Shown: positions 31,448 to 46,281 of the stretch, piece after piece
How positions within the stretch are numbered: the first letter of the stretch is position 1
Layout: every line of letters starts with the position of its first letter
DNA from: Myxococcota bacterium
Lineage (GTDB): Bacteria > Myxococcota_A > Polyangia > Nannocystales > Nannocystaceae
Assembly: GCA_039028615.1 (NCBI GenBank)
Contig: JBCCHT010000027.1
Span: forward strand, 128,001 to 192,000
Direction: 5' to 3'
DNA: 64,000 nt
Program-made: the position numbers and the translations under genes
Notes under the pieces: model-generated
The model's database searches: none
Told to the model about the DNA's origin: nothing
Seen by the model: only the letters and a program-made list of their open reading frames with translations

Positions 31448-31519
31448 ATGAACAACATCGAGCAATCCAACGGCGAGGACGACTCGACCCATCATCCGAT
31501 GGCGGGTGTAGCTCAGTAG
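31448..31519 (+). other. Spacer mini-ORF MNNIEQSNGEDDSTHHPMAGVAQ running into tRNA-His
   Basis: Starts in the ACATCATGAACA motif shared with spacers of the minus-strand array. Confidence 0.35.
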
Positions 31520-31577
31520 GTAGAGTGCCGGAATGTGACTCCGGTGGGCGCCGGTTCGAGCCCGGCCACTCGCCCCA
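31501..31577 (+). tRNA. tRNA-His(GUG)
   Basis: Cloverleaf with G-1:C73, loop AT-GTG-AC, encoded CCA. Confidence 0.92.
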
Positions 31578-31618
31578 CAAATTCCTCCCCATGCGGTCTC
31601 ATCGGCTGGCCACCTCGG

Positions 31619-32251
31619 CTAGATCCGAGGACCGCGAGACTTCGACCGGTCGTAGATGACCTCGGTCACCGCGTAGGTCGGCGTGTACTCCAGCACGTTC
31701 ACCACCGGGTTCTTCGCGCCCGAGAGGCCGTACACGGTCCTCAATCCCCGCAGCAATACATCGAGGTACAGGCGTTCGTAGAGGTTCTCGGGGTAGGTGA
31801 TCCGTCCGAGATTCCCGTTTTGGTTGCGCTCCAAGTGCTCGCGCTCGGTGCCGCGACGGAGCGCCCTCCAACGCTTCGATGCACCCCTGGACAGCCTACC
31901 GGGCGAAAGCACGGCAAAGATGACCCGATACAGCGGTCCTGAGAGCGTCGCGCGTAGGTTGCGTTCGCCCCAGTCGAGATAGTCCTCATCGCTCCCGAAG
32001 AACGCCTCCCGCAGCGTGCCGTTCAGCGCGATCATATGAGCCTCCGGCACCCACCCCGAAGGCAGCGGCAACGGATCGAACATGGCCTGCACCGGCTCCG
32101 GCAGCCGACTCAGGTCGAAGCCTTCGGGCGGGTTCTCGAGCACCCCGCGAACAAACGAGCCTTTGACCACCGCCTCGGGGTAGGAATCGAGGCCGTCGGG
32201 CAGCGTGCTCAGCCACTCGTCCGTCCGCGGAAAACCCTCGAACTGCCCCAC
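31619..32251 (-). CDS. Myxobacterial hypothetical protein (possibly DUF2378-like)
   Basis: LPDGLDSYPEAVVKGS; family recalled from memory; start uncertain. Confidence 0.5.
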   Translation of the reverse strand: MGQFEGFPRTDEWLSTLPDGLDSYPEAVVKGSFVRGVLENPPEGFDLSRLPEPVQAMFDPLPLPSGWVPEAHMIALNGTLREAFFGSDEDYLDWGERNLRATLSGPLYRVIFAVLSPGRLSRGASKRWRALRRGTEREHLERNQNGNLGRITYPENLYERLYLDVLLRGLRTVYGLSGAKNPVVNVLEYTPTYAVTEVIYDRSKSRGPRI

Positions 32252-32429
32252 CCGATCACGATACCGCGACGGCGACTTTTCCCTGTGGCCCGGGCCGGGC
32301 CATGGACCGCGGGTTTTCCCCGCGTTCATCGGCGGTTCTACTACAGCACTCGCGCCCAGCCATGGTTGGCAGTGATCTCGGGTTCGCAGATCATGCGAGA
32401 CCAGTCCGCGAGCAACACGGCACTGCCGA

Positions 32430-33380
32430 TCAGTCGGCGCGAAGCGTGCACGTGTCGAACCCCGCGCTCAGGATCTCGGCGTCGAGATCGAGCCCCAGAA
32501 TCACGAGCCGGCTCGTCCGATCGGCATCGGCCCAGGGCAGCCCCAGCGTGACCTCGATCGCCTCGCCGACCCCCTGGAGGATCACGCGTTCATCGACGCC
32601 ATGCACGGCGAGAATCCCCTTGATTCTCGCGATCTTCGTCTGAATCGCGCCCAGCGTGGTCTCCACCCAGTGCCCGAAGCGGTCCTCGTCCAGCTCCCCG
32701 TCGTGGACCAGGGACACGGCCTTGATCCCACGGTGTTGGCCTCGGGCTTCTTTCGGCACGACTCGAAGCACCCCGGCCCGCGCCGCGAGCAGTTCCTCGA
32801 GTGAGCCTGCGTTCGGATCGTCCAAGCGTCCTCTCCGCGCTCGCGCGAACACGGCTCCGGGGGCATAGGGGGTCAGCTCCTCCGCCCGCGCGGTCACATC
32901 TGATTCCGTGCACTCGTCCACATGCGACATCACGACGACATCCGCGAACCCGAGCTGCTCGATCGTCAGGTCGTACCGTAGCGCGCGGTGGGCCCGCGCC
33001 ACGTCGATGACTGTGACCACCCCGTCGAGTCGAAGCCGGTCCCGCGCCGTGCCCCAGGTGAGCGCTCGGATGACACCAGCGGGCGAGGCCGCCCCCGAGG
33101 TCTCGACCACGATCCGTGACGGCCGGGGCGTGGCGTGAGCGAAGCCGGTCAACGCGGCATCGAGCGCGGCCTGGGTCGTGCAGCACACGCAGCCCCCGGT
33201 GATCTCGAGGATCTGCGATGCACGCGAGGCCAACAGGGCCCCATCGATCCCGACCTCGCCCTGCTCGTTGACGATCACCGCCGTATCGGAAGGCAGAGCC
33301 AATAGCCAACGGTCGAGCAGCGTGGACTTGCCCGCTCCAAGAAAGCCCGTGACGACGGTGACGGGGATCGGCGAGTCCAC
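32430..33380 (-). CDS. COG0523/CobW-family GTPase metallochaperone
   Basis: GFLGAGKST, NEQG, GCVCC, ETSG, RIKG C-terminal domain. Confidence 0.9.
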   Translation of the reverse strand: MDSPIPVTVVTGFLGAGKSTLLDRWLLALPSDTAVIVNEQGEVGIDGALLASRASQILEITGGCVCCTTQAALDAALTGFAHATPRPSRIVVETSGAASPAGVIRALTWGTARDRLRLDGVVTVIDVARAHRALRYDLTIEQLGFADVVVMSHVDECTESDVTARAEELTPYAPGAVFARARRGRLDDPNAGSLEELLAARAGVLRVVPKEARGQHRGIKAVSLVHDGELDEDRFGHWVETTLGAIQTKIARIKGILAVHGVDERVILQGVGEAIEVTLGLPWADADRTSRLVILGLDLDAEILSAGFDTCTLRAD

Positions 33381-33582
33381 CTGGCCAGTTTAGCAAGCCA
33401 CGGTCGATGCTCGTAGGCGAAGGGAGCGCTGCGTCGTCCCGACGTCTCTGGCCGCTGCGGAGCCCTCTCGGGCACACGCGCCGCGATGGCCGGGCTCGGG
33501 CGTTCCACGTTGTCTAGATCGGGCAACACTGTGACGCCATTGGCCACTGCCGCCGTCGGGGTTCTCGCCGCACGCTCGGAGC

Positions 33583-34545
33583 ATGCACTCGAGACCGAGA
33601 TTGTGCTCCCTCTTCGCGTCGTTTCTGGTGATGGCGACGGCGTGCGGCGAGTTCGGATCGATCGACAACCCCGACATGGACGAACTCGACGCGACCGCAC
33701 TCGCCCAGGTCCGGCTCGGGCACGCGCTATTCTTCGACCCCGGACTCTCTGGGACGGGGGACGTGTCGTGTGCGTCATGCCATGACCCGGCCGCCTTCGG
33801 TGTGGATGGGCTCGCGCGATCCGAGGGAACCGGAGGCGCGACCGTGAGCCGCAACGCACCGTCGACGTTCAACGCGGCGCTCAAGGACCTCCAGTTCTGG
33901 GACGGCCGCGCACAGAGCCTGGAAGAGCAAGTCGTGGGGCCCCTGTTCGCTCCGAACGAAATGGGCCAAACCGAGGAAGGACTGCTCGAGCACGTGCGTG
34001 AAACCTGGGCGGACGCGTTCGCGGCGGCGTTTCCCGCCGAAGATGGGCCCACGCTCGAGCAGGTCACCCGCGCCATCGCGGCCTACGAGCGGATGCTCCC
34101 GCGTCGGTCTGCGTTCGACCGCTTCGTCGACGGCGAGCGCGAGGCCCTGTCGGCGCAGGCGCGTCGCGGCTACAGAATCTTCCGCCGTAACTGCTCCAAC
34201 TGCCACGATGGCCCTGCGCTCGGACACGGACTGCAGAAGCTCGGGGACAAAGTACCCTGGCCCGACGACCGACGGACGGACCTCGGGAGGCTCGAGGTCA
34301 CGGGGAACCCCGACGACGCAATGGTGTTCGCCGTCCCCTCGCTCCGCAACGTGGCCGAGACCGGTCCGTGGTTTCACGATGGCAGCGTCGAGACGCTCGA
34401 AGAAGCGGTCCGGCTGATGGCGCGCCACCAGGTGGACCGACGCTTCACGGAGGCGCAGGAGGGCGCGGTCGTGGCCTTCCTTCGCTCGCTGACCGCCGAG
34501 GACGTGCAGCCCTGGGCGTTCGAGGACTGGGAGGGCGGACTATAG
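33583..34545 (+). CDS. Di-heme cytochrome c peroxidase (CCP/MauG family)
   Basis: CASCH and CSNCH; RNAPST, QFWDGRA, PSLRNVAETGPWFHDG. Confidence 0.92.
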   Translation: MHSRPRLCSLFASFLVMATACGEFGSIDNPDMDELDATALAQVRLGHALFFDPGLSGTGDVSCASCHDPAAFGVDGLARSEGTGGATVSRNAPSTFNAALKDLQFWDGRAQSLEEQVVGPLFAPNEMGQTEEGLLEHVRETWADAFAAAFPAEDGPTLEQVTRAIAAYERMLPRRSAFDRFVDGEREALSAQARRGYRIFRRNCSNCHDGPALGHGLQKLGDKVPWPDDRRTDLGRLEVTGNPDDAMVFAVPSLRNVAETGPWFHDGSVETLEEAVRLMARHQVDRRFTEAQEGAVVAFLRSLTAEDVQPWAFEDWEGGL

Positions 34546-35568
34546 GTCTCGACGAAACACGGCGGGCGTGGTGCCGAACCAGCGTCGAAACGCCCGATGA
34601 AACGAGGCCTGGTCCCGATAGCCGAGCAAGAACGCGACCTCCGCCTGCGACACCTTCGGATCGGAAAGCAGCGTGCGGGCGCGTTCCTGCCGGACCGCGG
34701 AGAGGAGCCCGCCGAACGTCTCACTCTCTTCTTTGAGGCGCCGGGCCAGCGACCGTGACCCGAGCCCGAGGTCGCGGGCGATTGCATCGGCGGTCGGCGT
34801 TCCATCCGACAGCCGCCGCTCGATCATCGCGCGGACCTTGTCCACCCAGCCGAGTTCGCTGACGTCCGGGGCAGCCTGCTCGAGGATGCCGCGAAAGTAG
34901 GCGGACAGCTCCAGGTCGTGGGAAGGCAGGGGCCGCACAGCGAGTGCGGCCGGAATGACGAGCGCCGCCTTGGCATGCCCCGCTTCGATGGGGGCCCCGG
35001 CGAACGCTTCCCACGAGCGTCGCTGTGCCTCTGGGATCTCCGCCCGGCGCGAGCGCAGCCGTTGAACCGGGACGTCCGGGCCGACCAGCGTCCGAATTAG
35101 CTGAACGGCAACGAGGAGCGTGTAGTCGGACAACAGCTGCGAGCCGGGCGTAGCCGGACCGAAACGCGTCTCCTCGATGAAGACGGCCTCGCCCTCGAGC
35201 CGAGCGTCGTATCGCGCGGTCCGATTGGTGAGTTCCTGGTAGCGACCATGCCGGGCCATCGCTTCGCCCAAGAACGCGGACGTTTTACACGCCAGCCCTA
35301 CGACGCCCAGGCTCGTGGCGGTGTGTCGCTGCACGGCATCGAGCACGAACTCCGGGAAGCCTGGCCGTGTGGCCATCCACGTCATGTGCTCATACGTCGA
35401 CGCGCCCGAGACCGTGGCGCCATCCCGCGCGATGAGTTCCGCCGTCCAACCGAGCCGGGCTTCGAGCTCCGACTCGGTTACCCCGGCCTCGAGCGACGCC
35501 TCGAAGGCGGGGCGCACGTTGCAGACGTCGATGTCCAGCTCGGCCAACGGGTGGTCAGAGTCGGGCAT
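34540..35568 (-). CDS. AraC family transcriptional regulator
   Basis: C-terminal RSLARRL...VAFLLGY..ASFHRAFRRWFG.TP. Confidence 0.9.
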   Translation of the reverse strand: MPDSDHPLAELDIDVCNVRPAFEASLEAGVTESELEARLGWTAELIARDGATVSGASTYEHMTWMATRPGFPEFVLDAVQRHTATSLGVVGLACKTSAFLGEAMARHGRYQELTNRTARYDARLEGEAVFIEETRFGPATPGSQLLSDYTLLVAVQLIRTLVGPDVPVQRLRSRRAEIPEAQRRSWEAFAGAPIEAGHAKAALVIPAALAVRPLPSHDLELSAYFRGILEQAAPDVSELGWVDKVRAMIERRLSDGTPTADAIARDLGLGSRSLARRLKEESETFGGLLSAVRQERARTLLSDPKVSQAEVAFLLGYRDQASFHRAFRRWFGTTPAVFRRDL

Positions 35569-35752
35569 GCGCGCGCCCGAGGTCAAGCCGCTGCGTCTGC
35601 GACGGCGGTTCCAGCACTGCGTGCGGCTCTCCTCGTTCCGAGCCCAGACGAGCTCGACCGATCGCACCGAGCGCCAAGGCTCGATCCTGCACACTGCCGA
35701 AGCATTGTCGCCGTGTGTCGGAAATTTGAGGGTGTTACGGTCGAACCTGCTC

Positions 35753-36577
35753 ATGAAGGCTTCGACCACCCGCCCATGTGTTCTCGTTTGGATGCTCTCG
35801 ATGGGCCTCGCGGGATGCGACGCGCCCCCCGAGCCCGACCACCAGCAGTTTCGAGTGGGGGAAGAGACGAACGAGGATGATGGAGGGGAAGACGGAGGCA
35901 ACGAAGGAGCCGTGAACAACGCTCCTCCATCGGGCTGGGGCACGTACGTCCCCTGTCCGAGCGGAGACCCACTCGCGACACCGATGTTCATCCCGATGAC
36001 GCCGATGCCTTCATTGAGCGGCAGCGTCCTGGACAGCGAAGGGGCACCAGACGCCTTCATTGCGGGCTGCATCCAGGAGTTCAATGGCGGCGCGTGCGGA
36101 GACTTCCGAAAGTCCACGCCCGACGAATGTATCGACGACACGATGCTGCGGGAGTTCGATGGCGGCAACGGAGCGTGCTCGCTGAACCTGTACGCCAAGT
36201 CGTACGACTGCGATGCGTTGTGCAAGGCCCTGGGTGCGCTCGGTGGTGAGTGCCGACAAGACCAGCCGGTCGTGTGCAAACCGGACGGGACAACCGTCGA
36301 CTCGGCCTATTGCGCTTGCAACGGTCTCATTGCCGGCAGCGGCACGGACGACGGCGGTACCGGGGGCGACGATGCTACGACCGGCATGGCGACCATGGGC
36401 GGCACGGGAACGGGCTCCATCGAGTGCGACTACGAGCCCGAAACGGGCACTTGGGGCGGCTTCACGTCCTCGGGCACCACGGGCGGCACCACGTCGACAG
36501 GCACGACAGGCGGCACTACGTCATCGGGCACCAGTTCATCGGGCACCACAGGCGGCACTTCTTCATCGGGTTCCTGA
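35753..36577 (+). CDS. Cys-rich lipoprotein with Gly/Thr/Ser tail
   Basis: LAGC lipobox; divergent from the AraC gene. Confidence 0.6.
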   Translation: MKASTTRPCVLVWMLSMGLAGCDAPPEPDHQQFRVGEETNEDDGGEDGGNEGAVNNAPPSGWGTYVPCPSGDPLATPMFIPMTPMPSLSGSVLDSEGAPDAFIAGCIQEFNGGACGDFRKSTPDECIDDTMLREFDGGNGACSLNLYAKSYDCDALCKALGALGGECRQDQPVVCKPDGTTVDSAYCACNGLIAGSGTDDGGTGGDDATTGMATMGGTGTGSIECDYEPETGTWGGFTSSGTTGGTTSTGTTGGTTSSGTSSSGTTGGTSSSGS

Positions 36578-36583
36578 GCCCCG

Positions 36584-37201
36584 CTACGTTTTCCTCGAAG
36601 CTCTACGATCGCCCACGAGTGGTGAGGACCGGTCGATTTTCACCACCCTCGATGCTCGGGTGCCGATCCGGATCTTCACTGCGTCGACCTGGGACCGGTC
36701 CGCGACGAGCCCGAGACTATGGAAGCCAATCGCCGTGAGCCCAATGCCGGCGACCTTGATTTGGACGCGCACCTGCACTGTCCGCCCTGTGAGCGTCGGT
36801 GGCTTGCGGCGCACCCGATCGGAGATTGAAGCGGTGGTCCACAAGACGACGACCAGTGACTCTCGGCGGAAATCGACCCCGACGCTCTCGAACCAGGACT
36901 GCCACGCGTCCTGGTCATTCACTTTGTACCGCTCGCTGATTTCGCCGATGCGCTCGTGAAATCGCTTCCAGCTGCGGGGGGTGGTGAACACCGCGGGGGA
37001 GATGAGCACGTCCGACGTCAGGCCCGACTCCGGGGGCTGCGGCGTCGATCGGAAGGCAGGGCCTCCGGGGGCGGTCGGGCCTTCACCGACTCGGCACGCG
37101 GACACGACGGCCGTGCTCGCGATCCCCAGCGCGAAATGTCGCCGGGGTAGAGCCTCACGAGGTTTGTTGGAGAACAGGCTCATGTCGGTATGCCAAGCCA
37201 T
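36584..37201 (-). CDS. Hypothetical Tat-type lipoprotein
   Basis: PRRHFALG...VSAC twin-arginine signal plus lipobox. Confidence 0.5.
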   Translation of the reverse strand: MAWHTDMSLFSNKPREALPRRHFALGIASTAVVSACRVGEGPTAPGGPAFRSTPQPPESGLTSDVLISPAVFTTPRSWKRFHERIGEISERYKVNDQDAWQSWFESVGVDFRRESLVVVLWTTASISDRVRRKPPTLTGRTVQVRVQIKVAGIGLTAIGFHSLGLVADRSQVDAVKIRIGTRASRVVKIDRSSPLVGDRRASRKT

Positions 37202-37253
37202 GCTGCAGAAGCGACGCTGTCTGGGGACGATGGGCGCGCGGCGTGACTGCGCT

Positions 37254-37556
37254 TCAGCTCAGGTGCCCCTCGATGGAGGCGAGCACCTGCTGTCGTTCAC
37301 TCTCGGAAAGCCGCTCGTTCCACCACTCCGCGAACGCCTTGGGCACCCCCTCGGGTAATCCCTCGTCGAGTAGCGTACGCGCGGGGACCTCGTAGCTCGC
37401 TCCGAAGTTTCCGAAGCTCGAGCGTGCGTTGAGCTGGATGACACCGACGCCGAACGACACCGTCCCGTCTGGCCGAATCCAGACCGTGAGATCTTCGAGG
37501 ACCTGTTCCGAGACCTGCACCTTCTTTTCGAACAGCCGGATCTGATCGGGGGGCAC
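37254..37556 (-). CDS. Hypothetical protein (100 aa)
   Basis: Globular-looking composition. Confidence 0.45.
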   Translation of the reverse strand: MPPDQIRLFEKKVQVSEQVLEDLTVWIRPDGTVSFGVGVIQLNARSSFGNFGASYEVPARTLLDEGLPEGVPKAFAEWWNERLSESERQQVLASIEGHLS

Positions 37557-37660
37557 ACCTTCAACCTAGCACGCCCGAAGACGCGGACCCTTGGAAACGA
37601 TGAACACAAAGAGCGTAGTATCCCGGCTCCGCCCCGCTCACCATTTCTCTAGGACAACAC

Positions 37661-38482
37661 GTGCGCCCACTCGAAGAACTGCCTCATCGCTTCTGGCCCA
37701 AAGACCGACTCCCCGAGGGCGTCAAACCGCGGAGCAAGTTCAGCAACCAGAAGATCGCCAAGCTCAAGAGCGCGTACGGTAAAGCGGTGAGCCCGGTGCT
37801 GCGGGCCGAGGGTTTTCGCTGTGTGGGCACCAAAGGCAGCCGCCAGCAGGACTGGCTATGGCAAGGCACTTGGCTGCTCGGTGGCAAGTACGGAGGCAAG
37901 GCGTGGATCTTGATGTGTGCGCATCCCCCGGGCTTCCCCGCGCGCAACGAGTACGAGGTGCGCGCGCCTTTCGAGGTGCCCCAGTGCCTGTTCAAGCGCA
38001 CCGTTCGCTTCTTCGACGGCCCGTCGGGCGACGAGTTCGATCTGGGCACTGCCGCGGAGACACCGGAGACGGTGGCGATCATGGCCGAGGCGGTTGCCGC
38101 CGATGGGTTGGCGTACCTGAGTCGCCTGGAGAATGCCCGGGAGCGCTTGCTGTCGGTCACGGCGGAGACCTACGACACCCTGATGCCCGAGACCCACACC
38201 GAGCTCGGCCTTTCGGTCACCGACAGCGCCTTCGAGGATTCCGAACGCGCGCGGCTCGAGCTTTGCCTGTTCCTGCTGAGGATCCATCGAGAGGCGGGCA
38301 CCGACGCCGTACGAGGGCTAGCCGACGCCGGACTGGCCGCGTTCGACCAACAACCCGAGCTGCGAGGCACCAAGCACTACCTCACGCGGATCCTGCTGGA
38401 GCGACTTCCCAGCGGCGGCCCGCTGCATGCCACCGACGAAGAAAAGCAAGCGGCCGAGGCAGCGTGGAGGGCCGACCAATAG
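37661..38482 (+). CDS. Hypothetical protein
   Basis: 273 aa ORF, AGGA upstream, typical codon usage. Confidence 0.6.
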   Translation: MRPLEELPHRFWPKDRLPEGVKPRSKFSNQKIAKLKSAYGKAVSPVLRAEGFRCVGTKGSRQQDWLWQGTWLLGGKYGGKAWILMCAHPPGFPARNEYEVRAPFEVPQCLFKRTVRFFDGPSGDEFDLGTAAETPETVAIMAEAVAADGLAYLSRLENARERLLSVTAETYDTLMPETHTELGLSVTDSAFEDSERARLELCLFLLRIHREAGTDAVRGLADAGLAAFDQQPELRGTKHYLTRILLERLPSGGPLHATDEEKQAAEAAWRADQ

Positions 38483-38713
38483 CCGAGAAAGGCCGGCCGC
38501 GGCCGCTCGCTCAGGCGCACCGTCACCCAACCGGCCTCGTCGGCATAGACGGCCCCAGCCAAGACCGCTCCGAGTCCGCCGCCGAGTTGCCCCACCGAGA
38601 GAGGTGCCTGCACACGACACGATGATCAGTGGTTTGCGGCCGAGACGTTCGCTGAGCCGACCCGCTCGAGGACCGAAGGACACGCTCGCGATCCCACCGA
38701 TCACGAACACCAT
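38483..38713 (-). pseudogene. MFS transporter relic
   Basis: FVIGGIASVSFGPRAGRLSERLGRKPLII (MFS motif A) followed, in another frame, by GQLGGGLGAVLAGAVY. Confidence 0.55.
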
Positions 38714-38735
38714 CGCTCGATTCCGGTTCAGGCCC

Positions 38736-39611
38736 TCACCGAAGTGACACGCCCAACGACACCGCGACGAAGTGCAGCCAGTTTCGGTTGAAGCCGTCGG
38801 AGAGCGGGTCGGGATCACTCGAGGTTCCGCGAGCTCCACCCGCGAGGTAGCGAACGTTGAGGAACGTATCGACGCCGCGCTTCCAGGCCAACCCAGCCCG
38901 AAGCGAAGTGTCGAGGATTGCTCCCTCGACGTCGGAGCGACCGCCATTCAGGTACCGAATCGGAGCGTAGAAGCCGGTCGCTTCGGCGCCCATCCAGAAG
39001 TTGCGATGGACGAACCCACGGCCACGAAAGGCCAGCAGGGGCACGGGCCCGACATCTCGGACGCTGCGAAACGCACTGCCGTCTTGCGCTGCGTACTCGA
39101 GGTTGGCGTTGCGGATCTGAAGCGCGACTCCAACCGCGACCTCCCGGTCATCCTCGAGAAAGTCGTACAGATAGGTCCCGCGCCAAAACGGAAAACCGTA
39201 GCGAAAGTCGAGCGCGGTACCGGCGGGGAACACCACGTCCTCGACCCGCAGGTCGCGGTCCGTCACCGCTCGGGTCTGGAGGTCGAGCGGCTGATAGAGC
39301 AGCGCAATCGTGTGTCGACGTTTGCGTCCGATGTCGAGATCCGCGGAGAAACGCGCGAAGGGGAACAGAGTGTCTTGCCCCAGATCGCGCCGGAGGTCGA
39401 CATAGGTGCCTTCGCGTCCCAGCTGTAGGCGATGAGACGCGACGGCCAAGAACCCGAGCTCTGCCTGCAGACGGACGGCGACGGGCCGTTCCGGATCGTT
39501 GATGACCGAGTCCTTCGCCTCAGGGCTACCTGCGTGGGCGTAGGTGGGACACAGCAGGGACCACGAGGTCACCGCGAGCAGGAGGACGAGGAATCGAATC
39601 GAGGAAGACAT
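38736..39611 (-). CDS. Putative outer-membrane beta-barrel protein
   Basis: Signal peptide AHA; amphipathic strands; C-terminal VSLGVSLR. Confidence 0.65.
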   Translation of the reverse strand: MSSSIRFLVLLLAVTSWSLLCPTYAHAGSPEAKDSVINDPERPVAVRLQAELGFLAVASHRLQLGREGTYVDLRRDLGQDTLFPFARFSADLDIGRKRRHTIALLYQPLDLQTRAVTDRDLRVEDVVFPAGTALDFRYGFPFWRGTYLYDFLEDDREVAVGVALQIRNANLEYAAQDGSAFRSVRDVGPVPLLAFRGRGFVHRNFWMGAEATGFYAPIRYLNGGRSDVEGAILDTSLRAGLAWKRGVDTFLNVRYLAGGARGTSSDPDPLSDGFNRNWLHFVAVSLGVSLR

Positions 39612-40137
39612 GATGGTGGGTCGACTGTGTGGGGGTCGATCACAACGTTGACCAAAACCCCCGAGGTGCAACGACCTGGCCTTCCATGCTCCTCGTACGC
39701 GACGCTACGGTCATTGCGCGCCCCCGACTTCGCGCAGGCAAGCCCAACACCGCGCCGTCTCGGCCCTGCGTGGAAACAGCGAGTCGGTGGTTGCCAGCGA
39801 ACGCGAAGCACCAGCCGTGTCGTCGTTCCCTTTATTGGGAAGTGACCCATCGCTCTCGCTCCGAATGACTGCGTCTCCGTGAAGCGAACGGAGCGCGAAT
39901 TGGACACCATACGCCGCTCAGCGGCCCGTAGCGGCCAGTTGTTTGACAGCGGAGAACCCTCCGTCAAACCAAGGGAGGACTCGAGATCCTCGGGTTCGTC
40001 CGGGACGCGGCTCGCACGGCGATGGGTTGCTGCGACGCCGAGTGGACTGGCGATCGCGGGACCTTCGACCCGTTTCGTGCGTGCGTCTCGTCGTCTGCCC
40101 AGGCATCGAGGCCCCAGGTCTCGAGAAGGATGCGTTC

Positions 40138-40314
40138 ATGCAAAAGGTAAAGTTCTACACGGGCCTTTCGGCCTTCGTCTCTCTCGTTTTCTCCGTGACG
40201 TTGTGGTTCTCGGGGCACAAGGACCAGGGGGTCTTCGTGGGCTTGTGGGTGCCCTCCATTCTCTCCCTGGGTGCCTTCATTCTCTCTGGATGGAATCACT
40301 ACGATGGAAAGTGA
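40138..40314 (+). CDS. Small two-TM membrane protein (58 aa)
   Basis: SD-like GAAGGA; GVFVGLWVPSIL. Confidence 0.65.
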   Translation: MQKVKFYTGLSAFVSLVFSVTLWFSGHKDQGVFVGLWVPSILSLGAFILSGWNHYDGK

Positions 40315-40414
40315 TCTCTTCATCTTTGGCGTGGGAGTCTCCGTACTCTCCCCCGTGCTCTTGTCCGTGGGCATGCTGTTGTGGGTCGGAGGGCGCCCCA
40401 CGAGACGCCGTTGA
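40304..40414 (+). CDS. Small single-TM protein (36 aa)
   Basis: Manual translation MESDLFIFGVGVSVLSPVLLSVGMLLWVGGRPTRRR; overlaps the upstream stop. Confidence 0.45.
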   Translation: MESDLFIFGVGVSVLSPVLLSVGMLLWVGGRPTRRR

Positions 40415-40535
40415 CCTTCGCGGCCGACGAGCAACGGGTGGGGCGTGGGCTCCGGTATGCCCGGCCCCATTCGGCCGTTCACGTCCAGAGAGTCGAAAAC
40501 CCCGCCCTCACCCGCTGCATCCCCTCCGCTTCGCC

Positions 40536-41510
40536 TCACGCCCCCGCTGCACACAGCGACGCGTAGCGCACCTCGTCGCCGCGCCGGGCGACCTGACCGG
40601 CCAGCTCGGGACTGGCGACCGTGGTCAGGACGATGCGAGCACGCCAACGACCGAGCTGGTCGTCGACCGCCCCCTGGCTGAGGACCAGTCCGGCGAGACG
40701 CCGCACGACCGCCTCCACGTCGGCGCGCTCGCGCGACGTCGCTTCGGCGAGCGCTGCCTCTAGGCCCTCGAGGCGGTCGTCGATCACCCGTAGCGGCCGA
40801 GCGACGGACGCACGCTCACCGAGCGCCCGTGCGACCTCGATCGCGAGCGAGCCGTAGCAGACCCGCACCAGGGGCTCCCACACGTGACGCCAGAAGGCCT
40901 GGTTGGGCGCCAGCTCGACCCCCACCACCCGACCACCGATGAGGATGATCGCGCCACGCTGATCGGGGACCAACTCGAACTCGGCGACGAACTCGTCGAG
41001 TTGCTTGGCGAAGTGACGGAGGAAGTACTCGAGGTGTCCACCGCCGCCCCCCGTGGACGCGCCCAGCCGGGTGTTGAAGCGCGTGATGTCGGGCCACAGC
41101 TTGTCGTAGCCCGTCTCGTTGCGCATCGCGAGCGCACGGCCACGCAGGGCAGCGGGGAGCACCACCATCGGATGCTTGTCTCGCCCGATGTAGCCCCCCT
41201 GCGACTGCTGAATGCAACGCGCAGTGTCGATCTTGACCGACTGCCCCGCCCGCATCAGCTTGCCGCTGCCGATCGCGTGATCCTGCGCCGCTTGCCGGAC
41301 CACCCACCCCGCGCCCGGAGGCACGATGGTGGGACGGTCGTCGTCGTTGCGCAGATCGACGGTACCGTAGTGACTCGTGCCGACCTCGACGTGGGGCGGG
41401 GCGAACGTCTCGTCGTCCTCGCCGAGCAGAGGGATCACCTCCATCACGCCGACGCTCTGACGTCGACCCGTTCGGGTTCCACGCAGGATGTCTTCAACGG
41501 TGAGTCTCAT
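40536..41510 (-). CDS. ARPP/DUF6569-like domain protein (324 aa)
   Basis: Starts MRLTVEDIL with an ATGA overlap to the upstream gene; QDHA, CIQQSQGG, FELVPDQRGAIILIGG; family recalled from memory. Confidence 0.55.
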   Translation of the reverse strand: MRLTVEDILRGTRTGRRQSVGVMEVIPLLGEDDETFAPPHVEVGTSHYGTVDLRNDDDRPTIVPPGAGWVVRQAAQDHAIGSGKLMRAGQSVKIDTARCIQQSQGGYIGRDKHPMVVLPAALRGRALAMRNETGYDKLWPDITRFNTRLGASTGGGGGHLEYFLRHFAKQLDEFVAEFELVPDQRGAIILIGGRVVGVELAPNQAFWRHVWEPLVRVCYGSLAIEVARALGERASVARPLRVIDDRLEGLEAALAEATSRERADVEAVVRRLAGLVLSQGAVDDQLGRWRARIVLTTVASPELAGQVARRGDEVRYASLCAAGA

Positions 41511-43123
41511 CTCAGCACCTCTCGATCTGCCCTCGGGGGCAGCGACGTCATGCGCAGTAGCGCATCGATCACACGCTTCGGCTCGTGGTCGAGCATGGCT
41601 CGCAGCAGCGAGATTCCGGACGCGTCCGGCTTGGTCATGGGTAGGGTGGGCACCAGTCCCGGCGCCAGCTCTCGCACCCCCGAGGTCTCTGCCGCGACCA
41701 CGGGATTGATATGGACGATCGGAGCCCGAATGCCGATCCGCTTCAGGTGCGCGCACACGTCCGCGAACCTCCCGGCGGGAGCGTTCTCGTAGCCGTCGGA
41801 GATCACGTAGATCACGTCGGGCCGCAGTCGGAGCATCTGCAGCAAAGCGCTGGCGAGGTTGGTCTCGCCCTGCGGACGAACGAGCCGGCCGAGGTCGGGA
41901 TTCGCCACACCGCCCACGTAGCGCACATGCCCGTGACCGGCCGTGTGCAGCAGCATGTCTCGAGTCGCCAGGGCGGTGGCCATGGGCCGCAGCTTCTGAG
42001 TCGTCGAGCCGAACATGGACGCCGAGCCGTCGACGATGACCCCCACCGACTCGTAGTGGAACGGGAACTGAAGCGCGGCCTTGCGAGCCTTGTCGTCCAG
42101 CGCTCGCTCGATCGGCGAGGTCATGCCCATTTCGAATGCGTAGATGTAGAGCTTCACTGCCTCCAGTCGTGTCGGGTCCATCTCGACGTCGACACCAGCG
42201 TCCTTGGCCTGACGCTGCACGGCCATGCGTTGGCCGGCCGACATGCTTCCCTTGCTCAGCTCGAGGAGCTGAGCCTTGCCCACCTTCGAGTGGTAGGTCG
42301 CGGCGATGCCTTGTAGCACCTCGAGCGGCAGCCCCTGGCCCGCGGCCAGGTCGGTCTTTGCGGCTTGCGCCTTGTAGAAGACCGGGATGGACCATGCCGT
42401 ACGCTCCGCGCCCAGGATGTAGGCCACGCACTCGCGCAGCCACGCGACGGGAGCCCTGGGCGCCCATCGGTCGACCTCCTCACGCAGGATCTTGTGTTCC
42501 TTGTCGCCGATGCGCGCCGGCTCCTTGCCGAGGATCGAGCGCAGGATGCCCGTCTTCCGCACGCCCCACGCGTGGGTCAGCGCCGTGCTGAGCTTGTCGC
42601 GGTACTTGACCGCCCACCAGTCCAGCGAGCGTGCCCGCAGGAGCGTCCGTAGTACGAGCTTCCGTGCCCGGTTGGTGTTGACCCGACCGGAGCCCAGCGA
42701 CTCGTCCTTACCGCGCAGCGAGACCAGCAGCCGCAGCATTCGCGTGGCCGGTAGCTCGTGCAGCAGGTCGTCGACCAGAGCGAGTTCCTGCCCGGCGCTC
42801 ACGATGGAGCCCGTGCCCATGCGCGGTCGCATGAGCAGGCTACGTACGCCGAGCTGACGCGTCCGGTCCGTCACTCCGGGCAGAGTGAGGAACGCGGCGT
42901 ACAGGCCACGATCCAGCGCGAGCATGTCCCCGTGGGACCTCTGCTCCGCCGCCCGGACCTCGCCCTCGTCGTTGTAGTGCGTCGCCCGGCCCAGCCCGGT
43001 TGCCGCGTGGTCGAGGAACGAGCGTACGACGTCGCGCACTCGCTCATCGGCCACCCCAACGGGCGTCGCCCACGTGGGCGTCACGGCCTTGCGACTCAGC
43101 TCCGTGGTCTGCATCGTATCCAT
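41507..43123 (-). CDS. Ro60/TROVE-like helical protein with C-terminal vWA domain (538 aa)
   Basis: Basic helical N-terminal region; MIDAS DGSAS...T...ISDGYEN; GGAG SD; Ro60-like size and architecture. The vWA is solid; TROVE is inferred. Confidence 0.6.
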   Translation of the reverse strand: MDTMQTTELSRKAVTPTWATPVGVADERVRDVVRSFLDHAATGLGRATHYNDEGEVRAAEQRSHGDMLALDRGLYAAFLTLPGVTDRTRQLGVRSLLMRPRMGTGSIVSAGQELALVDDLLHELPATRMLRLLVSLRGKDESLGSGRVNTNRARKLVLRTLLRARSLDWWAVKYRDKLSTALTHAWGVRKTGILRSILGKEPARIGDKEHKILREEVDRWAPRAPVAWLRECVAYILGAERTAWSIPVFYKAQAAKTDLAAGQGLPLEVLQGIAATYHSKVGKAQLLELSKGSMSAGQRMAVQRQAKDAGVDVEMDPTRLEAVKLYIYAFEMGMTSPIERALDDKARKAALQFPFHYESVGVIVDGSASMFGSTTQKLRPMATALATRDMLLHTAGHGHVRYVGGVANPDLGRLVRPQGETNLASALLQMLRLRPDVIYVISDGYENAPAGRFADVCAHLKRIGIRAPIVHINPVVAAETSGVRELAPGLVPTLPMTKPDASGISLLRAMLDHEPKRVIDALLRMTSLPPRADREVLR

Positions 43124-43146
43124 CGTCTCGGTCTCCGTCGTCAGGG

Positions 43147-43301
43147 GATCGTTCGCAAAAAGCAGCCCGGGCCAAGGTCGGGGCCAACTATGGGTTCCAG
43201 AACAGGAATCGAACCTGCCCTCTTCGTTTCCAACGAAGTGCGCTCCAAATGCGCCATCTGTAATGGCTCCAGAGTCCCCGAGCTACTCTTTGCGATCGAT
43301 C
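43147..43301 (-). ncRNA. tRNA-like cloverleaf (anticodon GGA, 43191-43263) enclosed in a 25-bp helix; candidate Y-RNA-like RNA
   Basis: Arms 43277-43301 and 43147-43171 pair with 3 G-U and 1 mismatch, and the G-U pairs work only on the minus strand. Inner D, anticodon and T arms plus CCA. Confidence 0.7.
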
Positions 43302-43311
43302 GTAGTTGTCG

Positions 43312-43341
43312 TGGAGACCCGAATTCAGCCTCGGGTCTCCA
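43312..43341. other. Perfect 11-bp spacer hairpin
   Basis: TGGAGACCCGA-N8-TCGGGTCTCCA. Confidence 0.7.
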
Positions 43342-43359
43342 GCAATTTTCATCGTTCTA

Positions 43360-43436
43360 TGGTGGGCGCGGCAGGATTTGCACCTGCGACCTCTCGGTTA
43401 TCAGCCGAGTGCTCCAACTCCCTGAGCTACGCGCCC
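43360..43436 (-). tRNA. tRNA-Ile(GAU), atypical T loop
   Basis: GGGCGCG/CGCGCCC, loop CT-GAT-AA, T loop TGCAAAT, A73, CCA. Confidence 0.88.
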
Positions 43437-43486
43437 AGGGTAATCATCGCGGGCTCGTCGAGCGAGCCCATACCGTACATGTCCAT
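43427..43486 (-). other. Spacer mini-ORF MDMYGMGSLDEPAMITLGA ending inside tRNA-Ile
   Basis: GAGG SD plus ACATCATGGACA start motif. Confidence 0.35.
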
Positions 43487-43505
43487 GATGTCCTCAATCT
43501 GTCTT

Positions 43506-43580
43506 TGGTACCGGGTGAGGGAGTCGAACCCCCAACCATCAGTGTGTAAAACTGCTGCTCTACCGTTGAGCCAACCCGGC
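43506..43580 (-). tRNA. tRNA-Val(UAC)
   Basis: GCCGGGT/ACCCGGT, loop TT-TAC-AC, A73, CCA; G27-A43 mismatch. Confidence 0.88.
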
Positions 43581-43632
43581 GTGGGTCCAGCGGGTCGCAA
43601 TCCGGCGACCCTGCGTGGGACTCACGACGGTA

Positions 43633-43707
43633 TGGAGGGCGGTGCGGGATTCGAACCCGCGATCTCCTGGGTTGCAGCCAGGCGCCTTGCCACTCGACCA
43701 ACCGCCC
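43633..43707 (-). tRNA. tRNA-Cys(GCA)
   Basis: GGGCGGT/ACCGCCC, loop CT-GCA-AC, U73, CCA. Confidence 0.92.
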
Positions 43708-43713
43708 TTGCGG

Positions 43714-43781
43714 CAGGTCGCCGGGGGATCGAACCCCGTCTCGTGGAGTTGGAGTCCACGGTCTCCTCCAGGAAGCGACCC
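43714..43781 (-). tRNA. tRNA-Trp(CCA)-like with reduced D arm (68 nt)
   Basis: GGGTCGC/GCGACCT, 6-bp anticodon stem, loop CT-CCA-AC, intact T arm, G73. Confidence 0.7.
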
Positions 43782-43862
43782 ATACGAACCGAAGTACGTA
43801 CAACATCGCCAGGAGCGACCGAGGATGTGAAGTGGTTGGATCATCGTCCTCGTCCTTTTCGG

Positions 43863-43935
43863 TGGACCGGGTGGGAGTCGAACCCACGACCTTCTGCGTG
43901 CAAGGCAGTTGCTCTCCCAGCTGAGCTACCGGCCC
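43863..43935 (-). tRNA. tRNA-Ala(UGC)
   Basis: G3:U70 identity pair, loop CT-TGC-AC, A73; A27-A43 mismatch. Confidence 0.92.
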
Positions 43936-43967
43936 ATGGGGGTCGCATGCCCTCCTGACCGGAGGGC

Positions 43968-44003
43968 CTACCTCGCGGCAGCGTCCTTTCGTGAAATGTT
44001 CAT
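43968..44003 (-). other. Spacer mini-ORF MNISRKDAAAR upstream of tRNA-Ala
   Basis: ACATCATGAACA start motif; followed by a GCCCTCC/GGAGGGC hairpin. Confidence 0.35.
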
Positions 44004-44065
44004 GATGTCACCCGTAAAAATTGGACAGTGGGTCAAGTTTGAAGAGATGAATTGGATCCCCTTGT

Positions 44066-44137
44066 CGGGGATCGTTGGTTTCGAGCCAACGAATGGAGGC
44101 GTTTTCAGTGCCCTCTGTAGTCTCTTCGTAGTTCCCG
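44066..44137 (-). pseudogene. Degenerate tRNA-Phe(GAA)-like element
   Basis: Loop CT-GAA-AA and T arm GTTGG-CTCGAAA-CCAAC retained; acceptor mismatches, no D stem. Confidence 0.55.
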
Positions 44138-44145
44138 TCGTCCGG

Positions 44146-44275
44146 TGGCGAGGGCTGGAGTCGAACCAGCAAACTTCCGTTTTCGAGACAGACGCCTTTA
44201 CCTGAAACCCCTCAGTAGCCCCCGGATCGCATCCGGGCCAGGTGTCGAGGGGTTGAACCATTTGGCTACCTCGCC
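44146..44275 (-). ncRNA. tRNA-like RNA (anticodon CGA) with a 57-nt hairpin inserted in the D loop
   Basis: Perfect GGCGAGG/CCTCGCC acceptor, GCC/GGC D stem, intact T arm; removing 44201-44257 leaves a 73-nt cloverleaf. Confidence 0.8.
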
Positions 44276-44400
44276 GTATGTGATGTGCAGTTGATCGGGT
44301 CGTGAGAAGTGAAGTTCGTGAAGCCAACGATGGCCACACGGGCGTACGAAGCCCTCTCGGCGTAGGGCCGAGTCAGCGTGGCTCCGCGTGGAGCCAAAGC

Positions 44401-44597
44401 GTCGCGGGGGCTATGCCCTCGAGCGTCCCGATGCTCGTCGTATGAATGGATTCACACCGGGAGAACGCTCAACACGCGACAATCTCGCCCGCAAGGCGGA
44501 CGAGCGACCACAAGGCGGCGGCCTGGGCCGACGCTGGGGTCGAGATGTTCGTGAAACGTTCCATGGCGTGAACTCGTCGATCGCCCTTTGCAGGGCG
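44401..44597 (-). promoter_or_regulatory. Structured leader with alternative helices, same architecture as 31088-31251
   Basis: Start-region GAACGTTT pairs with GAGCGTTC, versus TTGAGCG/CGCTCGA, TCCCGGTG/CATCGGGA and GTCGCG/CGCGAC. Confidence 0.6.
44469..44564 (-). CDS. Putative leader peptide MERFTNISTPASAQAAALWSLVRLAGEIVAC
   Basis: Manual translation; ends I-x-x-C-TGA like leader 1; contains every amino acid represented in the downstream array. Confidence 0.55.
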   Translation of the reverse strand: MERFTNISTPASAQAAALWSLVRLAGEIVAC

Positions 44598-44604
44598 TTT
44601 GAGA

Positions 44605-44632
44605 GATGTACACGAGATTTTTGAGTCGTCAA
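44605..44632 (-). promoter_or_regulatory. Putative sigma70 promoter of the tRNA array
   Basis: TTGACG-N16-TACATC with an upstream A9 tract (44646-54). Confidence 0.5.
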
Positions 44633-44755
44633 AGACATTTGTGCATTTTTTTTTCGCCGCGCACGAGGTGCGACTATCCAAAACTCGAAGAGGCCACTCG
44701 AAATCGTGAGTTCCGCCTGAGCTTCGCCGCCCTACGATGGAGAGGTGGTGATGCC

Positions 44756-45568
44756 ATGGGCGACGATGCAACCAACCGCTGGCTCTTTGCCGGCGATTCA
44801 ACGCAGGCGCAATACTCCATGCGCCTTCGCCTTCAGGCGTTCCTGAGAGAACACCTGTCCCGGCACGGCTACGAGCGAGCGCCGGGCGATCGAGTGGCCG
44901 ATCGCAGCTTCGTGCTGGGACCTCCCGCGCGCTGGATTTGGATCGGCGACAGCTTCGACTCGCTCGATGGCGAGTACTGTCGGAACAGCCCGTCCGCATT
45001 GACCCATCAGCTCGACCTTCGACGCGCACTCGAGGCGCTCGGCCCCGATGCGGTGCATCCGGGGACGACCCCTCGCGCGAGCGGACCGGGAGAGCTCGCG
45101 CCCTTGCTCTCGCACCTGGGCCCGGTGGCCAAGGTGGAGATCTCGGACAGCTCGATCGTTCACATCGAGTTGTTCGAGCGCGGCCGCGAGATCGATCGCT
45201 TCGCCAACGGCGTGAACCCCTTCTACTGCTTCCCGGACGCGAAAAGGGCGGCGCCCTGGCGTGGGCATCCCGAGCGTTGGGAGCCTCTGCTCCGCCCCGG
45301 GCGAACCGTCGACGAACTTCGGGCCGCATGGACGCAGGCCATCGGACGCTGGCCGGAGGGCAGGTCGGCGAGTTGCGACACCATCACGGCAGCCTGCATC
45401 GAGCTGCTGGGGTTCAGCGAGCTCGTCGATCGGGGCTATACCTGGAATCCCGAGGGCCTCGACTACCGATACACGGCGTACCTGGATCCGGCGACACGTC
45501 ATGCATGCTTCGAGCTGCACTTCCGTTGGCCGGGCAGCCCCGGCCGCGGCCGCTGGGACCGCGAGTGA
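44756..45568 (+). CDS. Hypothetical protein
   Basis: GAGGTG SD; 270 aa. Confidence 0.55.
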   Translation: MGDDATNRWLFAGDSTQAQYSMRLRLQAFLREHLSRHGYERAPGDRVADRSFVLGPPARWIWIGDSFDSLDGEYCRNSPSALTHQLDLRRALEALGPDAVHPGTTPRASGPGELAPLLSHLGPVAKVEISDSSIVHIELFERGREIDRFANGVNPFYCFPDAKRAAPWRGHPERWEPLLRPGRTVDELRAAWTQAIGRWPEGRSASCDTITAACIELLGFSELVDRGYTWNPEGLDYRYTAYLDPATRHACFELHFRWPGSPGRGRWDRE

Positions 45569-45660
45569 CGGTGGGAACGCAGCGGCGGGACTCGGGCACA
45601 CCTGCGGCGGATCAGCGGTGCTGGCTTACGCCGGTCATCGGTGGTGTAGTCCTGGTCGCG

Positions 45661-46281
45661 GTGAGACACGAACGCCTCGACCCGACCGATGACACCTCCG
45701 CCACCGAGGTGTCCGACGTGCTCGCTCGCGCGTTCCAGAACGACGAGTTCTTCGTGCGTGCGTACGGGAACCCAAGCAACCGTACGCGAGCGCTTCGCGT
45801 GCTCTTCCGCGGGCTCGTCAGGCTGCACCTACCGCTGAACGCCTGCTTCGCAGCGTACGACGGAGATCAGATCGTGGGCGCCAGCTTCTGGGCACCGTGC
45901 TCGTTTCACGCGGGATTCCTCGACAGCATCCGAGCGGGCATGGGCGGGCTGTTCCGGTATCCGATCTCACTGCTCCGCCTCATGCGCTGCGACGACCTTT
46001 ACATCGGCGAGATGCAGCGCCGCGCGACGCCTGAGGCCCACTACCTCAACAGCATCGGCGTGCTCCCTGAACACCAGGGACGCGGCATCGGCAGTGCAAT
46101 GCTGCGACACCAGCTCGAGGCCCTCGTCGATCCCACGGGCCTCGATGCGTGGCTGTGGACCAACAACGACCTCAACGAGCGACTCTATGGTCGCTTCGGC
46201 TTCGAGGTCGTGCACCGGGAGTCAATCCCCCCTCCTCGACCATTCACGGCCCGGCTGATGCACCGCGCTTTGGCGCGTTGA
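45661..46281 (+). CDS. GNAT family N-acetyltransferase
   Basis: YLNSIGVLPEHQGRGIGSAML; NERLYGRFGF. Confidence 0.88.
   Translation: MRHERLDPTDDTSATEVSDVLARAFQNDEFFVRAYGNPSNRTRALRVLFRGLVRLHLPLNACFAAYDGDQIVGASFWAPCSFHAGFLDSIRAGMGGLFRYPISLLRLMRCDDLYIGEMQRRATPEAHYLNSIGVLPEHQGRGIGSAMLRHQLEALVDPTGLDAWLWTNNDLNERLYGRFGFEVVHRESIPPPRPFTARLMHRALAR

Follow-up and report, generated by a model that had tools for sequence, protein, structure and literature searches.

The window studied here, a stretch of 64,000 nucleotides from a Myxococcota bacterium of the family Nannocystaceae (contig JBCCHT010000027.1 of the assembly GCA_039028615.1), contains two arrays of tRNA genes, each preceded by a leader with a short upstream open reading frame (uORF). 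The host genome has a size of 12.27 Mb in 94 contigs and a G+C content of 68%. Array A, on the plus strand (31314–31577), consists of tRNA-Asp(GTC) at 31314–31387 and tRNA-His(GTG) at 31502–31577, identified by both ARAGORN and Rfam. Array B, on the minus strand (43191–44275), comprises seven genes predicted by ARAGORN: a Ser(CGA)-like gene, Ala(TGC), Trp(CCA), Cys(GCA), Val(TAC), Ile(GAT) and Ser(GGA). Five of these seven, all except Trp and Ser(CGA), are matched by Rfam, that is, seven of nine genes across both arrays. The initial annotation of the window had described the two leaders as copies of one attenuator-like element, and all the sequence features it listed were found in both copies where it had placed them.

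Copy A, on the plus strand, starts with a promoter-like region (31051–31079), in which TTGACG (31051–31056) and TAAAGA (31074–31079) are separated by a 17-nt spacer and preceded by an A/T-rich sequence. It is followed by a 6-bp 5' hairpin, CGCGTC-ACTTC-GACGCG (31088–31104), present in the minimum free energy (MFE) fold; the consensus scan also lists this stem on the opposite strand. The uORF (31115–31192), MNRSAQTHRHHHVVIVHSMHDICPC followed by TGA, has 25 sense codons, and the 24 codons after the start include six His codons and one Asp codon, the downstream genes being tRNA-Asp and tRNA-His. Region 1, GAACCGCTCCGCG (31117–31129), forms the 5' strand of a helix denoted P1. Region 2, CGTGTTGAGCGGTTC (31185–31199), covers the final codons including that of the last Cys, the TGA and the bases after the stop, and pairs alternatively with region 1 or region 3. 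Within the uORF, directly 5' of region 2, the MFE fold contains an internal 9-bp hairpin (31157–31177). Pairing of regions 2 and 3 produces a long hairpin (31183–31249, MFE −66.7) around the inner stem CCCGGCG/CGCCGGG (31199–31235). It is not followed by a T tract, and no terminator-like site was found on the plus strand by the consensus scan; 3' of the hairpin there are C-rich, weakly structured stretches.

Copy B has the same organization on the minus strand. The promoter-like region (44604–44632) consists of TTGACG (44632–44627), a 17-nt spacer and ACATCT (44609–44604), with an A-run upstream, and the 5' hairpin in the MFE fold is CGCCCT-GCAA-AGGGCG (44582–44597). The uORF (44469–44564), MERFTNISTPASAQAAALWSLVRLAGEIVAC followed by TGA, has 31 sense codons, and 16 of the 30 residues after the start are Ser, Ala, Trp, Cys, Val or Ile, matching the amino acids of the seven downstream tRNAs. 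Region 1, the 5' strand of P1, is GGAACGTTTCACG (44550–44562), region 2 is CGTGTTGAGCGTTC (44463–44476), and the internal 9-bp hairpin is CTCGTCCGC-CTT-GCGGGCGAG (44484–44504, z = −2.1). The long 2:3 hairpin (44401–44480) has the inner stem CCCGGTG/CATCGGG (44461–44427), the pairing GAGCG/CGCTC and an outer closing at 44406–44401. The TTGACG box, the 6-bp 5' hairpin and the uORF of 25 or 31 codons are thus present in both copies, as initially described, and the copies share an 11-mer, CGTGTTGAGCG, around the Cys-TGA end of the uORF.

This 11-mer occurs 16 times in the genome, and four of the occurrences are situated directly upstream of tRNA arrays. Of these four leader sites, the window contains two, and contigs C23 and C43 contain a single one each; the arrays they head, of 2, 7, 5 and 2 tRNAs, carry 16 of the 86 predicted tRNA genes of the genome, as clustered extra copies of housekeeping specificities. 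The two additional leaders, MKRTTTKTHTTTNPVAMGSFTASNSRKFGSC and MERFTTTTPMNTERMFGMGFMFGTC, head the Thr, Phe, Asn, Lys, Lys and the Met, Phe arrays, respectively.

A covariance model (R1), built from seven leaders with no tRNA sequence included, was applied to 73 genomes of the same family at E ≤ 0.01. It yielded 45 matches in 28 genomes. Thirty-eight of them, spanning 25 genomes and eight of the 17 genera, have an in-frame uORF (starting with ATG in 36 cases and GTG in two) and tRNAs on the same strand within 450 nt; below, these are referred to as the validated leaders. Further homologues upstream of tRNAs, the finding on which the initial annotation had made its proposal depend, are thereby provided. 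The first tRNA begins 36 to 400 nt past the model match. One more match (L029) is truncated at a contig end and stands outside the validated set, and six weak ones (L032, L035 and L049–L052, 23.9–28.2 bits), with neither a uORF nor tRNAs, were rejected.

An order-level search covered the identical 73 genomes. At the class level (151 genomes), a richer model, R2, gave seven matches outside the family, none with a uORF or tRNAs, and one weak match inside it, also lacking the combination of the two; because no match had a uORF plus tRNAs, all were counted as false. A scan of one genome per prokaryote species for a pattern of the start and stop motifs gave 38 matches, 11 of them with an in-frame stop at the motif. 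Ten of these 11 precede tRNA arrays, and the other 28 of the 38 matches have no tRNA downstream. Nine of the ten array-bearing records are titled Nannocystis, Nannocystaceae, Nannocystales, Myxococcota, Myxococcales or Paraliomyxa (Paraliomyxa miuraensis), and one is titled "uncultured proteobacterium". No match to the same pattern was found in viral contigs. Since the class-level and species-wide scans gave no convincing matches elsewhere, the leader, a chromosomal element, appears to be confined to the Nannocystaceae within the genomes searched.

All 38 validated leaders have a TTGAC box 45–133 nt upstream of the start codon; a strict sigma-70 consensus scan called no promoter at either window leader. 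The uORFs are 24–55 codons long and all end with an in-frame TGA, and 32–34 of the 38 leaders have G or A at positions −11 to −9, a candidate purine-rich ribosome-binding stretch. These features point to translation of the uORF, as had been supposed for the two window copies. The N-terminus of the predicted peptide, M-[KNE]-R-[STF]-T, is conserved, and the C-terminal residue is Cys in 33 of 38 leaders; the peptide core is not conserved and varies with the array. Of the ending Ile-x-x-Cys-TGA noted initially, the final Cys and the TGA, which belong to the RNA motif, hold in the family, while the Ile-x-x-Cys motif is not conserved. The 9-bp hairpin near the end of the uORF, noted in the same annotation, is a family feature, with the mean z of −2.24 and z below −1.5 in 25 of 38 leaders.

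The strongest support for control of the arrays through the uORF comes from an observation absent from the initial annotation, namely that the leader codons match the downstream tRNAs, and do so in the uORF frame only. In the 38 leaders taken together, the uORF frame has 1201 residues, of which 375 are cognate to the leader's own array; the other two frames have 82 and 110 cognate residues, out of 1163 in each case. The excess of cognate residues over the pooled leader composition is 156.9, with the standard deviation of 15.2 in permutations that reassigned arrays among leaders, and none of 5000 permutations reached it. The other two frames show no cognate excess (z = −2.0 and −1.5). The signal persists when the helix-constrained codons, the first five and the last three, are dropped (z = 10.2). 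An earlier run, with 36 leaders dereplicated to 24 representatives, gave the excess of 102 with the standard deviation of 12.7, reached by none of 20,000 permutations; nine amino acids occurred in at least six arrays in that run (Thr, Val, Ile, Met, Phe, Lys, Asn, Asp and His), and every one of them was commoner in leaders with its tRNA downstream. The His content is 12.4% in leaders with tRNA-His downstream and 1.4% in those without it.

The match can be followed by eye in individual leaders. The leader MIRSTTVTTTTTITTTVVVRGIIVC precedes Thr, Val, Ile and Met tRNAs; MMKRSTIYAISMTVASTMSRMSARMPMSGMRRPC, nine Met tRNAs and one Ile tRNA; MIRFTNMMYMYTPGARFMCVMAPC, Met/Phe ×6; MNRSTTDSHHHMRDHVVFVHSMHDICPC, Asp, Asp and His; and MKRSTKYDHASTVTVVVDIVTHVGDKIHTC, Thr, Val, Asp, Ile and His. 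For Thr, the match may extend to the codon choice: ACA accounts for eight of 16 Thr codons where tRNA-Thr(UGU) is encoded downstream, compared to two of 58 elsewhere (Fisher test, 3e-5, the lineages not being independent). Since few lineages are involved, this is only suggestive. The choice between the Lys codons AAA and AAG shows no clear trend with the Lys anticodons present. The amino acids of the leader do not convincingly follow the succession of tRNAs in the array (mean Spearman rho of 0.28, positive in 11 of 17 cases).

A position upstream of translation-related genes would also be natural for a T-box-type RNA that binds tRNA directly. We assign a vanishingly small likelihood to this explanation, together with that of a chance likeness of two intergenic regions. 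At the gathering score, Rfam finds only tRNA across the window, and cmscan of both leaders with E up to 10 yields no T-box or other leader family, the three sub-threshold matches being two microRNA precursor families and one Hfq-regulated small RNA family. Moreover, the codon signal is specific to the frame of the uORF, for which a specifier-type contact has no need. Chance likeness is excluded by the family matches and by the global scan, where ten of the 38 pattern matches occurred with tRNA arrays.

Helix P1 is formed by region 1, comprising the G of the start codon and codons 2–5, and region 2 (CGTG..TTGAGCGNTTC), with 9 + 4 bp. In the 38 sequences 92.3% of the P1 cells are paired, compared to 28–56% when the partner is slid. 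Eight of the 13 pairs have changed on both sides, which was reached in none of 500 shuffles, and ten of the P1 pairs are independently predicted by RNAalifold. In particular, the change of GAGCG to GAGGG in region 2 of L023 and L026 is matched by the change of codon 3 from CGC to CCC, replacing Arg with Pro. The earlier remark that the sequences differ and the pairings are kept, made on two copies, is hence borne out by the family.

The same data bear on the possibility that the small ORFs encode functional peptides, such as precursors modified with amino acids from the neighbouring tRNAs, and that the folds are incidental. The C-terminal Cys, conserved in 33 of 38 leaders, and the N-terminal motif are what one would expect of such peptides, and yet we consider this very improbable. 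The conserved ends of the peptide coincide with paired RNA strands, and nucleotide conservation continues beyond the stop codon; the core varies with the array; the compensatory changes in L023 and L026 alter the peptide; and no modifying-enzyme families were found among the flanking ORFs using Pfam and NCBIfam.

In the alternative fold, region 2 pairs with a downstream arm (..GCTC..CACG), forming a hairpin of 45–95 nt that encloses a CCCGG-type inner stem. This 2:3 hairpin is present in the MFE fold of 30 of the 38 downstream segments. Unselected 95-nt windows beginning at region 2 have the mean z of −2.74, with 21 of 38 below −2, whereas in the controls the mean is −0.03 and one of 38 is below −2. 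Both pairings initially proposed for the stop region, with the uORF start and with a competing downstream arm, are therefore seen, and the downstream arm is conserved. The mean energy is −70.7 kcal/mol for the 2:3 state and −61.7 kcal/mol for the P1 state (n = 30); the computed values would fit a kinetic switch.

Taken together, these observations suggest that the element is a cis-acting leader-peptide sensor, that is, a ribosome-mediated attenuator heading an operon of accessory tRNA genes. We estimate the probability of this reading at about 0.7. Within it, our confidence is high that the uORF is a translated, codon-matched sensor, as judged from the sequence comparisons, and moderate as regards the exact form of the switch. 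Attenuation of tRNA genes dependent on ribosome position had been suggested in the initial annotation from the two window copies, and the comparative tests support it.

The mechanism would operate as follows. When cognate aminoacyl-tRNA is ample, the ribosome would reach the TGA and depart, and region 2 would fold with region 3; the 2:3 hairpin would then halt transcription, or otherwise block output, ahead of the tRNA genes. When the cognate codons are decoded slowly, the ribosome would stall within the uORF. If it stalled in the middle of the uORF, region 1 would be free behind it and would capture region 2 on its emergence; if it stalled late, the ribosome itself would occlude region 2. In either case the 2:3 hairpin would not be made in time, and RNA polymerase would continue into the tRNA genes. 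The outcome would be negative feedback supplying exactly those tRNAs whose codons decode slowly. Because P1 is the weaker state, its capture of region 2 would be a kinetic trap. P1 should also form when there is no translation, and therefore ON would be the default. That stalling corresponds to the ON state we infer from the logic of the arrangement, and likewise that the choice of the RNA fold depends on the ribosome position.

The reverse polarity would have fast translation of the leader switch the array ON, for instance with the ribosome melting the 2:3 hairpin or shielding the RNA from Rho, and stalling switch it OFF. Once at the stop codon, a ribosome occupies region 2 and would open the hairpin. 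We find this quite improbable. The accessory tRNAs would be made only when their partners are already plentiful, a positive loop without an obvious benefit; the covarying P1 would be left without a role; and the clustering of cognate codons between regions 1 and 2 fits the capture of region 2 that depends on stalling.

Several points weigh against attenuation by a stalled ribosome. A sub-group of long leaders heading Asp or Thr/Asp arrays (L019, L020, L025 and L037) contains few cognate residues, 5 of 47, 3 of 39, 1 of 40 and 2 of 54, respectively. Thr is frequent in all leaders, at 10% even in those with no Thr tRNA downstream. Since the leaders are related by descent, the effective sample is less than 38. 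P1 was assessed on an alignment fitted to the model, and it is the less stable of the two states. The outer stem of the 2:3 hairpin is 83.5% paired, compared to 27–55% with the partner slid, in 21 sequences picked from those with the hairpin in the MFE fold, and its covariation is modest: three pairs, a number reached in 176 of 500 shuffles, and nine cells, compared to the shuffle mean of 4.8 (1 of 500). At the level of physiology, an attenuator cannot separate amino-acid starvation from tRNA shortage, and extra tRNA would not relieve starvation. Finally, there is no T tract 3' of the 2:3 hairpin in any copy read, in agreement with the initial annotation, and thus the hairpin is not a textbook intrinsic terminator.

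The last point is weakly informative either way, since hairpin-plus-T sites are not enriched in the region 26001–46000, with five found and 9.3 expected from shuffles. Sigma-70 consensus promoters in the same region are at the chance level, one compared to 1.3. As the terminator sites fall below the shuffles and the promoters do not exceed chance, the standard consensus scans are of little use in this organism.

The missing T tract leads to an alternative in which the decoding-speed sensor is the same, and the output is different: the 2:3 hairpin could act post-transcriptionally, as a site for a double-strand RNase or as an exonuclease block, or it could gate the loading of Rho, as the mgtA/mgtL leader of Salmonella does, instead of terminating on its own. 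The C-rich, weakly structured stretches after the copy A hairpin would suit such an output, as would the variable gap between the hairpin and the first tRNA (36 to 400 nt past the model match) and the fact that tRNA precursors need processing anyway. The sequence does not discriminate among the outputs. No conserved motif was found past the 3' arm of the 2:3 hairpin, and the either/or fold at the stop codon is the hallmark of transcription attenuators. We regard such a different output as unlikely.

Some further features of the leader and spacer sequences should be mentioned. The motif CAT(T)CGTTGGC is observed at 31262–31272 on the plus strand, at 44095–44085 and 44332–44323 on the minus strand, and in the leader–tRNA spacer on contig C43, that is, between the leader hairpin and the tRNAs and also between tRNAs. 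In other genera the 5' hairpin is often CTCC-CTTGGCA-GGAG, with a similar TTGGC in the loop (L021, L022, L034, L036, L041, L043 and L044, with a variant in L046). The TTGGC-type motif could be a processing or protein-binding site. Recoding of the UGA as selenocysteine, with the downstream hairpin as the signal, was considered and rejected, because the in-frame extension past the TGA, of 5 to 217 codons, shows no conservation.

A similar relationship between codons and tRNAs may exist inside the arrays. We considered ORFs of at least eight codons starting with ATG in array spacers of at least 45 nt; 38 spacers qualify, yielding 36 representatives. These ORFs are enriched in the amino acid of the next tRNA (excess 27.3, standard deviation 6.5, reached in one of 10,000 permutations), and the same holds for their last ten codons (excess 17.6, standard deviation 3.8, 0 of 10,000). 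In array A, the spacer ORF MNNIEQSNGEDDSTHHPM... (31448–31519, plus strand) runs into tRNA-His and towards its end has two codons each for Asp and His (..DDSTHHPM). The motif S[TA]HHP[MY] precedes tRNA-His in four loci (L007, L039, L042 and L045), the latter three coming from two other genomes. In array B (minus strand), the ORF MNISRKDAAAR* (44003–43968), with three Ala codons, is followed by the hairpin GCCCTCC-GGTCA-GGAGGGC (43967–43949) and tRNA-Ala; the ORF MIQPLHILGRSWRCCTYFGSY... (43782–43844; ..SWRCC..), with one Trp and two Cys codons, is located before tRNA-Trp and tRNA-Cys; and the ORF MDMYGMGSLDEPAMITLGA* (43427–43486; ..DEPAMIT..) ends within tRNA-Ile. In locus L040 the spacer ORF before tRNA-Ile ends with ..DEEPIIMCKH, and the motif [HY]DE[LR]M recurs before tRNA-Met.

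These exploratory comparisons suggest that spacer ORFs with codons of the next tRNA, placed before a GC hairpin, may constitute a second, per-tRNA layer of the same logic. The two layers could then form a codon-addressed network of tRNA supply, with mini-leaders of individual cassettes and composite leaders of whole arrays, so that only the back-up tRNAs for slow codons would be transcribed. We put this forward tentatively, and on balance lean against it. Such a network would act as a direct homeostat, and what it keeps steady would be individual tRNA species instead of amino acids. A cell could thereby survive the loss of particular tRNAs, for example to tRNA-cleaving toxins exchanged among myxobacteria, and could meet surges in the demand for rare A/T-ending codons in a genome with the G+C content of 68%.

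The array tRNAs themselves are diverged. Their identity to the best non-array counterpart for the amino acid concerned is 59–81%, the values for tRNA-Asp and tRNA-His of array A being 72% and 74%, respectively. The 3' CCA is encoded in ten of the 16 array tRNAs and in fewer of their best non-array counterparts (four distinct genes). Several array tRNAs have unusual flanks of the anticodon in the loop, e.g. ..TTGAAGG.. in Phe and ..TTGTCAG.. in Asp. Bacterial serine tRNAs normally carry a long variable arm. The Ser(CGA)-like gene (44275–44141, minus strand) lacks it, having a 7-bp acceptor stem, normal anticodon and T arms, and an additional hairpin of 48 nt between the D arm and the anticodon arm; the ARAGORN core is only 73 nt, and there is no Rfam tRNA match at the gathering score. 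The tRNA-Ser(GGA) gene (43191–43263, minus strand; 73 nt) also has no long variable arm, and its Rfam match is the lowest, 49 bits. The tRNA-Trp gene (43712–43781, minus strand) is only 70 nt long and has no Rfam match at the gathering score. Elsewhere in the same genome, four Ser tRNA genes and one Tyr tRNA gene are tightly clustered (C3:258280–258723, plus strand); all are of class II and have long variable arms, and upstream of them there is no leader of this family. The largest array contains seven genes in this genome and 11 in relatives (within the 1.6–1.7 kb read downstream); these arrays are thus smaller than the array units defined, in the available part of PMC4758250, as at least 20 tRNA genes at two or more per kb.

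The genomic neighbourhood was analyzed using Pfam and NCBIfam. Two of the four arrays are flanked by Ser/Thr protein kinases with long TPR_12/TPR_10 regions: one is directly upstream of leader A (27105–30920, plus strand), and two are situated on either side of the C23 array (L105, 3339–6428 on the plus strand and 7466–10105 on the minus strand). This may merely reflect the abundance of such kinases in myxobacteria. An ORF of 538 codons (538 aa; 41507–43123, minus strand) starts on the strand of array B, 68 nt past its last tRNA, and could be co-transcribed with the array; it matches no Pfam or NCBIfam family. The other flanking ORFs encode an AraC regulator, CobW, cytochrome c peroxidase, a GNAT-domain acetyltransferase, an ECF sigma factor, a histidine kinase, a TetR regulator and a hydrolase, or have no match. 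Hence, as far as these two databases show, no hint of function comes from the flanking genes.

Bacterial tRNA genes are usually regarded as housekeeping genes controlled by the growth rate. In the literature searched, neither control of tRNA genes by a leader peptide nor arrays of this kind in the Nannocystaceae are described, although subscription journals were mostly not covered, and this is not proof of absence. What would be new is ribosome-mediated attenuation applied to tRNA genes. If the proposed mechanism is correct, an entire bacterial family controls groups of its tRNA genes by gauging, codon by codon, the performance of those very tRNAs, and leader-peptide attenuation extends from the supply of amino acids to the supply of tRNAs. 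The existence of a second, on-demand set of bacterial tRNAs would become a testable idea. The family would also provide a natural set of about 40 leaders with differing "programmed" specificities, in which the codon content could be related to the specificity of the sensor. The leader parts are compact, roughly 200 nt, and could act as tunable reporters of decoding speed for chosen codons.

Among known systems, T-box riboswitches respond to the state of a specific tRNA and use antitermination to regulate genes of the translation apparatus. They do so by direct binding of tRNA and without translation, whereas the leaders described here have no T-box match and carry a frame-specific signal. Other analogs are the leader-peptide attenuators of Enterobacteria, known for the trp, his, thr, ilv, leu and pheA operons and for pheM-pheST, encoding phenylalanyl-tRNA synthetase. 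Leaders responding to several amino acids exist among them: that of thr contains Thr and Ile codons, and that of ilv, Ile, Val and Leu codons. The common features are a short translated leader (here, a predicted one), codons cognate to what the operon supplies, and mutually exclusive pairings that would be set by the ribosome position; the principle is stated in the available part of PMC1183508. The differences are that the cargo here is tRNA genes rather than biosynthetic enzymes or a synthetase; that there are three pairing regions instead of four, with the stop codon inside the switch strand; that no U tract follows the hairpin, so that the U-tract terminator, one defining feature of the classical class, is missing; that the composition of each leader is fitted to its array, which in our sample represents up to eight different amino acids; and that no Rfam leader family is matched.

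Two other systems resemble the present one in particular aspects. The trn operon of Anabaena sp. PCC 7120 is a long inducible array of supernumerary tRNAs, switched on when translation is impaired (PMC8421152, in part). As far as that part of the source goes, it shares with the arrays considered here the division of tRNAs into housekeeping and on-demand sets. Unlike here, its control is ascribed to promoter repeats, neither "leader" nor "attenuat" occurring in its text, and the arrays discussed there are long, up to 43 genes, and horizontally spread. In mycobacteria and other Actinobacteria, stalling at the uORF of whiB7/wblC is believed to cause antitermination; the uORF's coding sequence sets which amino-acid shortages are sensed, and knock-down of tRNAs and tRNA synthetases activates the system (PMC10274678, as far as its available part covers this). 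The candidate leaders of the Nannocystaceae would be similar to it in that the coding sequence of the leader sets the shortage to be sensed. However, the whiB7 system controls a transcription factor of a stress regulon and its uORF is enriched in one amino acid, Ala, whereas here the tRNAs themselves would be the output, and the leader reflects the content of the array.

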